Position numbers and translations under genes: made by a program. The notes under the pieces were generated by a model that was not told the DNA's origin, did no database searches, and saw only the letters and a list, made by a program, of their open reading frames with translations. This document shows positions 12,576 through 13,947 of a stretch of 64,000 nt of DNA, in pieces; the first letter of the stretch is position 1; each line of letters starts with the position of its first letter. This DNA comes from Methylobacter marinus A45 (GTDB lineage Bacteria; Pseudomonadota; Gammaproteobacteria; Methylococcales; Methylomonadaceae): assembly GCF_000383855.1 (NCBI RefSeq), contig NZ_KB912877.1, forward strand, positions 3,328,282-3,392,281. Reading direction: 5' to 3'.

Positions 12576-13154
12576 ATGGCTGAATTTGTTCTTGAAAATA
12601 TTAATTTTGATGTAATAGAACCTGGCGAACCCATCAACGAGAAGGATTTGTACGATCTTGAGGCAAAGTTAGGTACGCAACTTCCAGCACAATTGCGCAG
12701 TTATTATTTGCGCTGGAATGGTGGTTTGCCATGCCCAAGCAGCATACCGCTTAATAAATCAGCCTGGGTACGCTTGTATTGGAAACCAGGGTCTGAAGCG
12801 GCTCGAGTTGGACCGGCTGCGAGCCTTCAGGAGTTTGCTGAGATTAACTCTTCCCCTGATATGGACTTTTTGCGTATCTGGAATGATTACAAACACCGTA
12901 TTCCTCAAGATTGCCTGTGCTTTGCGTGTAATCCTGGGGACAGTCAGTTTTTAATTGGCATTAAGGACTATAACCTTGGCAAAATTTATTTCTGGCAGCG
13001 CGACTATCAAGCTGATATTGGCGCAGGTGAACTTCCCGGCTACGACAATATCGCCGATGTTGCCAATTCTTTTGTGGAGTTTCTGTTGGCGTTGCATGAA
13101 GAGCCGGACGAAGGTGAATCGCTAGAAGCCTGGGTGCGACGCGTTTATGGCTAA
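12576..13154 (+). CDS. SUKH/Smi1-Knr4-like immunity protein (paralog 2, tandem duplicate)
   Basis: 192-aa ORF collinear with 11942-12529 at high identity. It shares the LPAQLRSYYLRWNGG motif and the identical C-terminal block GAGELPGYDNIADVANSFVEFLLAL. Confidence 0.55.
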   Translation: MAEFVLENINFDVIEPGEPINEKDLYDLEAKLGTQLPAQLRSYYLRWNGGLPCPSSIPLNKSAWVRLYWKPGSEAARVGPAASLQEFAEINSSPDMDFLRIWNDYKHRIPQDCLCFACNPGDSQFLIGIKDYNLGKIYFWQRDYQADIGAGELPGYDNIADVANSFVEFLLALHEEPDEGESLEAWVRRVYG

Positions 13155-13947
13155 TAACCAGCGAGTTGCCTGGTTACCCCCTTATGATTTTTCTGCCGCC
13201 AAAACCACTTTCATTGATGCTTGGCCTAAAGCCTGGAGAGATTTGGCGCCAGGCTATGACATTGTTCCTGTTGATCGGATCGAAATGAATGCTCTTGGCG
13301 CCCAGATTATGGGCTTCAGGCATTGGTTCACGCCCGCCTCGACGCAGCCCTTGATCCATCTAGCCCATCGCCTTGATGCCGTTATCGCTAAACAAAACCG
13401 GGCCTGTTTTATCCGCTTAAGCTCACGCAGTCCTAAAGATTCTATATACGCCTTGCGCAACGGCCTGTGCATTCGTGATGGCGCACAAGCCTTGGCGATC
13501 ATCCTTGAAGGCTCTGAGCGCTGCGCCGCGGATCTGCGCATGGCGCTAGATTACCATCATCCGATGGCCATCATCGTGCGCAACTGGATTGATTTTCCAC
13601 CCTGGGCGGAATTTCGTTGTTTTATGGTGGGACGCTGCTGGGTAGGGGCCAGTCAGGCAAGGCACCTTGAGCGGATTGCCTATCCCCCGATAGCTGATTA
13701 CAAGTCAAAAATACTTGAGGTATTGAATGCGTCAATGAAAAAGATTGCTGCTGCATCACCAATCGATAATGCGGCGTTTGACCTGGTATTTGATAGCTTA
13801 CAAAAATCAAATCATGCCATTTTGCTGGATGCAAATCCGCTGCTTGTCAGCACTGACACAGCACTTTTTTCTTCGATAGCCGATTTAGACTCGACTTTTC
13901 GCTTTCGGAATTCTAAAGATAATTCCATACGTAAAATTTCATTCTGA
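13147..13947 (+). CDS. Cdc123/D123-like ATP-grasp family protein (candidate effector)
   Basis: Three motif blocks resemble, from memory, eukaryotic Cdc123: CFIRLSSRSPKDS (compare KLNWSAPRDA), PWAEFRCFMVG (compare PGAEFRCFVKE) and AFDLVFDSLQKSNHAILLDANPL (compare FVFDIYRDSRGKVWLIDFNPFG). Its start overlaps the stop of immunity paralog 2. Confidence 0.5.
   Translation: MANNQRVAWLPPYDFSAAKTTFIDAWPKAWRDLAPGYDIVPVDRIEMNALGAQIMGFRHWFTPASTQPLIHLAHRLDAVIAKQNRACFIRLSSRSPKDSIYALRNGLCIRDGAQALAIILEGSERCAADLRMALDYHHPMAIIVRNWIDFPPWAEFRCFMVGRCWVGASQARHLERIAYPPIADYKSKILEVLNASMKKIAAASPIDNAAFDLVFDSLQKSNHAILLDANPLLVSTDTALFSSIADLDSTFRFRNSKDNSIRKISF

Follow-up and report, generated by a model that had tools for sequence, protein, structure and literature searches.

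We investigated a 266-aa protein encoded at 13147..13947 on the forward strand of a 64,000-nucleotide stretch of the Methylobacter marinus A45 contig NZ_KB912877.1 (the window), and found it to be a bacterial member of the Cdc123/D123 (R2K.1) family of ATP-grasp proteins. Its gene, D123, belongs to a four-gene cassette in which it always accompanies a WHH nuclease toxin and a SUKH immunity gene, here within an island headed by VgrG, the T6SS (type VI secretion system) spike. We propose, with a probability of about 0.55, that D123 acts in the producer cell as an ATP-dependent accessory of the toxin/immunity module and is not itself a toxin. The association of D123 with T6SS cassettes was already published in 2015 and 2018. 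Its detection here is therefore a rediscovery that adds a family member from a Methylobacter-like methanotroph and, for the window alone, a well-supported annotation of a published arrangement. The new elements are incremental: a strict, reciprocal and cross-phylum four-gene architecture that includes a 140-aa protein, the existence of orphan and plasmid-borne cassettes, translational coupling, and evidence of mosaic recombination in which D123 is not allele-specific.

The reading frame starts with ATG, and its product matches the Pfam family D123 (PF07065) over residues 70-248 with E=1.1e-16 and a score of 61.3 bits, where the gathering cut-off is 24. This is the sole Pfam domain of the protein, and an NCBIfam scan of it gave zero matches. 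Searched as a single sequence against solved chains, D123 retrieved human Cdc123 (8PHD, E=1.9e-5) and the S. pombe protein (4ZGN/4ZGP, E ~2e-3), while a profile built from 36 homologs reached human Cdc123 with E=5.6e-15. An earlier note on this DNA had proposed the same family from three sequence blocks, and these are real in both the single-sequence and the profile alignments. The window protein pairs RLSSRSPKD with human KLNWSAPRD, AEFRCF with AEFRCF and LLDANPL with LIDFNPF; the profile pairs vRLtsRSpKD with PKLNWSAPRD, aEfRcf with AEFRCF, aafDlv with FVFDIY and LLdaNP with LIDFNP. This match is far beyond chance and establishes 13147-13947 as a bacterial Cdc123/D123 (R2K.1) ATP-grasp member.

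We then built an AlphaFold2 (AF2) model of D123 on the 36-sequence homolog alignment. The model has a mean pLDDT of 94.9 and a pTM of 0.90, and shows a single compact fold over residues 5-266. The ten top Foldseek matches in the PDB were all Cdc123 (E 6e-15 to 2e-13, TM 0.67-0.74), followed by the classical ATP-grasp ligases Ddl, RimK and LysX/ArgX (E ~1e-5, TM 0.3-0.46). These ligases share the superfamily fold and the acidic/Asn Mg ligands with D123, but the structural match is much weaker and, as described by Burroughs, Zhang and Aravind (2015, Biol Direct 10:21, PMC4431377), the R2K clade is without their linker Lys and ssxGbGl loop. The window protein shares both its fold and its ATP/Mg ligands with eukaryotic Cdc123, from which it differs by an identity of only ~20%, a length shorter by 70-90 aa and the absence of the eukaryotic inserts and C-terminal tail.

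Burroughs et al. (PMC4431377) give the clade-defining residues in human Cdc123 numbering, and we scored the conservation of their counterparts across the 36 homologs. Human K104 corresponds to R90, R111 to K97, the ExR motif to E155-F-R157 and D233 to D212, all of them invariant; D246xN248 corresponds to D228-A-N230, with N230 invariant and D228 conserved in at least 90%. Every ATP/Mg ligand of the clade has its counterpart here. R90 and K97, which take the places of the strand-2 Lys and the loop Arg of eukaryotic Cdc123, both lie within RLSSRSPKD; their Lys/Arg identities are swapped relative to human KLNWSAPRD, with the chemistry kept. We take D212 as the counterpart of human D233 because it is invariant, sits at the middle of strand 209-214 in the AF2 model and is backed by the profile alignment. 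Single-sequence phmmer had instead aligned D216, a four-residue slip arising from the local 'FDLVFD'. With this complete predicted ligand set conserved, D123 looks able to bind ATP-Mg, judging from sequence and model.

In the window, D123 is the last gene of the following island:

7298..7332 (+): left copy of a 35-nt direct repeat flanking the island (repeat search; also in the near-identical contigs L012/L013)
7562..9688 (+): VgrG, T6SS spike, 708 aa (Pfam Phage_GPD 1e-110, Gp5_trimer_C, Phage_base_V)
9700..10242 (+): DUF4123 adaptor/chaperone of the Tap/TEC type, 180 aa (Pfam PF13503 5e-31)
10293..10586 (+): PAAR protein, 97 aa (Pfam PAAR_motif 4.6e-25)
10598..11020 (+): conserved ~140-aa protein, first gene of the four-gene cassette (orthologs directly upstream of the toxin in related loci)
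11024..11929 (+): toxin, 301 aa, with a helical conserved N-terminal region and a C-terminal WHH/colicin-DNase (HNH/EndoVII) nuclease (Pfam WHH 7.9e-14, Colicin-DNase 3.1e-11)
11942..12529 (+): SUKH-1 (SMI1/KNR4) immunity gene, copy A, 195 aa (Pfam SMI1_KNR4 6e-17)
12576..13154 (+): SUKH-1 immunity gene, copy B, 192 aa (Pfam SMI1_KNR4 3e-14)
13147..13947 (+): D123, Cdc123/D123-family (R2K.1) ATP-grasp protein, 266 aa (Pfam, homolog profile, AF2, Foldseek)
13986..14020 (+): right copy of the 35-nt direct repeat (repeat search; also in L012/L013)

Several features described by the earlier note hold here. The D123 ATG (13147) overlaps the end of SUKH copy B by 8 nt (ATGGCTAA), with the SUKH TAA stop at 13152-13154, and a repeat does mark the right boundary of the island. 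Its two copies are 34/35 identical with sharp edges, bracket the 6.7-kb VgrG-to-D123 island, and are the only two in the window, where none is expected by chance; the repeat also brackets the same island in the two near-identical metagenome contigs. It could be an insertion-site duplication or an att-like site, and we saw no integrase gene within the VgrG-to-D123 island. The left copy runs on into an imperfect palindrome (GTGCGAAT...ATTCGCAC). The ~140-aa protein gave zero matches in Pfam, NCBIfam and PADLOC. A 210-aa ORF with a TTG start (10388-11020), which overlaps the PAAR gene in another frame, probably has a wrong start, as homologs support the ATG at 10598.

We further compared D123 contexts across bacteria. 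They were gathered by exact homolog look-up and by pattern scans of genome and metagenome collections, supplemented by look-ups from toxin homologs and by tblastn against plasmids, after which the cassette parts were mapped by tblastn. Most contexts are metagenome contigs and plasmids, and about 25 non-redundant cassettes from chromosomes and plasmids of Gammaproteobacteria, Alphaproteobacteria and Myxococcota were compared. The family is sparse: a search of 1.84 billion representative proteins at E<=1e-30 gave 158 clusters. It is also rare among species-representative genomes: a pattern scan of those in GTDB found two loci only, both in one Methylococcaceae metagenome-assembled genome (MAG).

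The gene order is the same across these cassettes: a 130-170-aa protein, a WHH toxin of 270-330 aa, one to three SUKH genes, sometimes a DUF4123 gene, and D123 last. Wherever upstream sequence exists, D123 is directly preceded by SUKH or by SUKH then DUF4123 (L008, L021), or, in L005, by a 35-aa SUKH remnant. In loci that reach far enough upstream the orthologous WHH toxin precedes SUKH, and the 140-aa protein is present in most. This order is kept down to ~23-35% D123 identity, and distant carriers include an Archangium MAG (L019), Sagittula stellata E-37, a Sinorhizobium sojae symbiosis plasmid, a conjugative Tritonibacter plasmid and a Rhodobacteraceae plasmid; at the near end, a Methylobacter sp. 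MAG (L022) carries the same island with the same flanking genes as the window. The linkage is reciprocal, since toxin-seeded look-ups on contigs absent from the D123 searches found D123 after SUKH in both cases (2/2). The start of D123 overlaps the upstream stop by 4 nt in most loci and by 8 nt in the window lineage, which suggests that D123 is usually translationally coupled to the upstream immunity or adaptor gene. Among the ~25 contexts, D123 was never free-standing and never paired with another toxin/immunity family.

The surroundings of the cassette vary. VgrG, DUF4123 or PAAR genes adjoin it in at least seven lineages, among them the window lineage, L006, L021, L026, L027 and L028, and PAAR directly follows D123 in Sagittula and Sinorhizobium. 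In other loci (L009, L010, L019, L020, L023, L024 and L025) the cassette lies amid housekeeping genes or insertion sequence (IS), toxin-antitoxin (TA) and abortive infection (Abi) genes, in flanks without a T6SS gene. The constancy of the cassette in these variable surroundings shows that the unit that moves is the four-gene cassette, which is horizontally mobile. The earlier note had reasoned that a standard chromosomal context for the orthologs would count against an island-borne effector. Some cassettes do sit amid housekeeping genes, but D123 still travels with its toxin/immunity pair in every case.

We found no conserved gene 3' of D123 in the ~25 contexts, its neighbours being DoxX, NrdR, TspO, ABC-F, a sigma-54 activator, PAAR or IS elements. 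There is therefore no dedicated D123 immunity gene, as the earlier note had suspected from the window, which we examined together with all homologous loci. That note was also right that D123 carries no PAAR, Rhs or MIX domain; the modelled protein is a single compact fold.

A few loci depart from the common arrangement. L005 contains a broken cassette (8941-10001), with a WHH C-terminal fragment and the SUKH N-terminal remnant directly before D123; a large N6/N4 methyltransferase and a ResIII/SNF2 helicase (11134-18009) separate it from a second WHH-SUKH pair. L011 (6058-8645) is the only cassette in which D123 is convergent to SUKH, and its WHH gene is split in two frames; this cassette is probably decaying. 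L014, a 22-kb metagenome contig, holds two D123 cassettes ~9.6 kb apart (371-1288 and 9986-10792), whose D123 copies are 55% and 61% identical to that of the window; upstream of its second toxin we detected no counterpart of the 140-aa protein. None of the longer D123 homologs scanned combines D123 in one chain with SUKH, WHH or the 140-aa protein. The only domain fusion among the homologs examined was P0047 (419 aa, metagenome), in which D123 is followed by a C-terminal region weakly resembling nucleoside 2-deoxyribosyltransferase (Pfam E=0.003); P0121 and P0106 show N-terminal extensions only.

The N-terminal 190 residues of the toxin have 55 homologs, 52 of which are recorded with WHH/colicin-DNase; of the other three, one carries PF15604 and two are short and without a Pfam record. 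Conservation in the N-terminal region is highest over residues 37-92, which bear the motif DPxPxxD...GDxxGAxLS...PYxGDAxAK. In the AF2 model of the toxin the nuclease domain (residues 160-280) is confident while this conserved stretch has pLDDT<50, a pattern consistent with a segment that would fold only on a partner. In all cassette toxins the last residue is aromatic and the one before it small or polar (...Q-F or G-Y).

SUKH genes differ in number and allele between relatives. Copies A and B of the window are 81% identical to each other, and copy B is either a tandem duplicate or an acquired allele. L012/L013 carry a single SUKH of the A type (98% identical to copy A) and L016 a single one of the B type (97% identical to copy B). 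L022 has two SUKH genes of other alleles, 66% and 84% identical to copies A and B of the window, and L005 and L018 have three copies each. Judging from these sequences, immunity genes appear to accumulate and to swap alleles through recombination.

D123 behaves differently. Its ratio of nonsynonymous to synonymous substitution rates (dN/dS) is 0.16-0.29, indicative of purifying selection. Between the window and L022, D123 is 98% identical (dS 0.05), compared with 87% for WHH (dS 0.53) and 66-84% for the SUKH copies. The relation is reversed between the window and L016, where SUKH-B is 97% identical and D123 88%. D123 thus does not track particular toxin or immunity alleles, unlike a diversifying toxin or a lock-and-key immunity partner. 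Being decoupled from alleles, it would act like a constant accessory on conserved features of its partners.

Similar loci have been described before. Burroughs et al. reported Cdc123 homologs in bacterial T6SS/SUKH loci (PMC4431377). Their T6SS-type CDC123 (R2K.1) belongs to the same family and occurs in the same kind of SUKH toxin locus with VgrG and PAAR as in the window, where VgrG, DUF4123, PAAR, the WHH toxin and two SUKH genes stand directly upstream of D123; the same is found in homologous loci. They already offered two options for the bacterial protein, a secondary toxin or an auxiliary protein, and their main text is silent on the toxin partner, on the 140-aa protein and on any fixed gene order. 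In Pectobacterium carotovorum subsp. brasiliense 1692, the D123 gene PCBA_RS05775 lies within the HSI-2 Hcp/VgrG island (bioRxiv 10.1101/391854, 2018). WHH, SMI1_KNR4 and D123 follow one another there in the same order as in the window and are co-regulated with the island, and the authors explicitly remarked on the missing immunity gene for D123. PAAR follows D123 in Pectobacterium, whereas in the window it precedes the cassette and D123 is terminal; the two loci were compared by gene order. When the Pectobacterium D123 was induced in E. coli, in the one published assay of this kind on a homolog, it was non-toxic (10.1101/391854).

The only family member with an experimentally supported role is eukaryotic Cdc123, an ATP-binding assembly chaperone for eIF2 that drives the ATP-dependent joining of eIF2-gamma with eIF2-alpha; a 2025 report credits it with ATP hydrolysis, and it has no known ligase activity (PMC8844851, PMC12860950). 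The client of bacterial D123 cannot be eIF2-gamma. By analogy, in the most likely form of the accessory role, D123 would bind the newly made toxin-SUKH complex as Cdc123 holds eIF2-gamma, and remodel this complex through ATP binding or hydrolysis; this would let the 140-aa protein, DUF4123 and PAAR/VgrG take over the toxin for loading. In a variant of this scheme, D123 would act as a ligase that attaches a peptide or an amino acid to the toxin or to SUKH.

We favour an accessory over a toxin because of the fixed cassette membership of D123, the absence of an immunity gene, purifying selection and the lack of allele specificity. The proposed role resembles that of the T6SS chaperones and adaptors DUF4123 (Tap/TEC), Eag/DUF1795 and DUF2169, which are non-toxic, linked to effectors, without an immunity partner and specific to one effector family. 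Unlike D123, these proteins have unrelated folds and no nucleotide-binding site, and we know of no energy-using accessory for T6SS effector loading. The earlier note had suggested as one option a non-secreted modifier of the immunity proteins: the non-secreted part fits the comparative data better than an effector, but the immunity proteins need not be the specific substrate.

Several observations weigh against an accessory in the producer. Gene linkage fits equally well a helper that is delivered together with the toxin. Burroughs et al. favour peptide-ligase chemistry for the clade (PMC4431377), and the D123 residues by themselves would not distinguish a ligase from an ATPase or chaperone. 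The negative toxicity assay of the Pectobacterium protein is weak, as the WHH nuclease was also non-toxic there (10.1101/391854). Finally, the second WHH-SUKH pair of L005 (18177-19662) is of the same family and has no D123, which shows that D123 is not strictly required for immunity.

A more specific form of the accessory role is an ATP-driven exchange or disassembly chaperone, which would strip or reposition SUKH and hand the WHH nuclease to the T6SS loading partners. We put this forward tentatively, as a possibility that we rate as rather unlikely. If true, D123 would be the first energy-using effector-loading factor of the T6SS and would represent a prokaryotic ancestor of the eIF2-assembly role of Cdc123.

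Alternatively, D123 may be a second secreted T6SS effector that modifies a target-cell protein by ATP-dependent ligation, loaded via DUF4123/VgrG or riding with the nuclease. It would need no immunity gene if its target were absent from kin (for instance eukaryotic) or if D123 were harmless alone. The 'cargo' label of the earlier note implied such a role. Its place at the end of a VgrG-DUF4123-PAAR-effector operon would suit an effector, and so would the arrangement in Sagittula, Sinorhizobium and Pectobacterium (the last per 10.1101/391854), where the immunity gene precedes it and PAAR follows; its catalytic residues are intact. Burroughs et al. list the 'secondary toxin' option and predict that a Legionella/amoeba clade consists of effectors (PMC4431377), while the Pectobacterium authors propose a plant-directed effector (10.1101/391854). 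Against this, D123 is tied to the WHH toxin and SUKH in every context, including cassettes far from vgrG, and its translation is usually coupled to that of the immunity or adaptor gene. It has no immunity gene in any context examined, no toxin-like diversification of alleles and a homolog that is non-toxic in E. coli. The absence of a delivery domain (Pfam) adds little, since cargo effectors can lack one, and a methanotroph of lake and wetland metagenomes appears to have no obvious eukaryotic host. We therefore find the cargo label unsupported and consider a secreted effector unlikely.

A variant that we take seriously, though also consider unlikely, is that D123 works in the producer as a genuine ATP-grasp ligase and covalently modifies one of the cassette proteins. 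It might add Glu or another residue to the conserved toxin C-terminus (...Q-F or G-Y), to the CxxC region of the toxin, or to SUKH; the nuclease would thereby be held inactive or tagged for loading, by analogy with Legionella SidJ, which glutamylates SidE. Burroughs et al. (PMC4431377) group the clade with peptide-bond-forming ATP-grasps by its ExR motif, the Mg/ATP ligands are invariant, every cassette toxin keeps the same kind of C-terminus, and after Cdc123 the closest structures are those of Ddl, RimK and LysX. Yet more than 10 years of work on Cdc123 have found ligase activity for none of its members (PMC8844851, PMC12860950), and the clade is described as being without the usual substrate loop of ATP-grasp ligases (PMC4431377). 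The conserved toxin C-terminus, which is modelled at low confidence, could simply belong to the nuclease fold.

A T6SS-independent TA or defence module, chromosomal or plasmid-borne, in which D123 senses or regulates nuclease release, is very improbable: many orphan cassettes do neighbour TA, Abi and IS genes or are plasmid-borne, and their flanks of 4-8 kb are free of T6SS genes, but orphan effector-immunity cassettes remote from vgrG are normal in T6SS, the four cassette proteins have no PADLOC match, VgrG, DUF4123 or PAAR genes are adjacent in at least seven lineages, and the long conserved non-catalytic N-terminal region of the toxin is typical of delivered toxins.

Whichever chemistry D123 performs, the cassette bears on a wider question. 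Cdc123 is essential in eukaryotes and its ATP-grasp site is required for function, while its chemistry is still debated and its likely evolutionary source lies among its bacterial relatives. With three candidate clients only (the 140-aa protein, the WHH toxin and SUKH), the cassette offers a simple and genetically tractable Cdc123-type system. It could also reveal whether T6SS nuclease effectors require energy-dependent release from their immunity protein.

The genes around the island in the window deserve a brief description. Directly upstream of it, 3477-5501 encodes 674 aa that combine Sel1 repeats with a caspase (Peptidase_C14) domain, and 5563-7167 encodes a Ser/Thr protein kinase of 534 aa that ends in a TPR region; the pair looks like a conflict or signalling module. 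On the other side, the gene after D123 is a convergent DoxX gene (14241-14810, minus strand). It belongs to a minus-strand operon (14241-16455) of DoxX, DUF2063/HvfC and MbnB/TglH/ChrH (DUF692), which resembles genes for the modification of ribosomally synthesized and post-translationally modified peptides. This operon is kept in the Methylobacter MAG L022, where it is followed by an ECF sigma factor and zf-HC2 anti-sigma factor pair.

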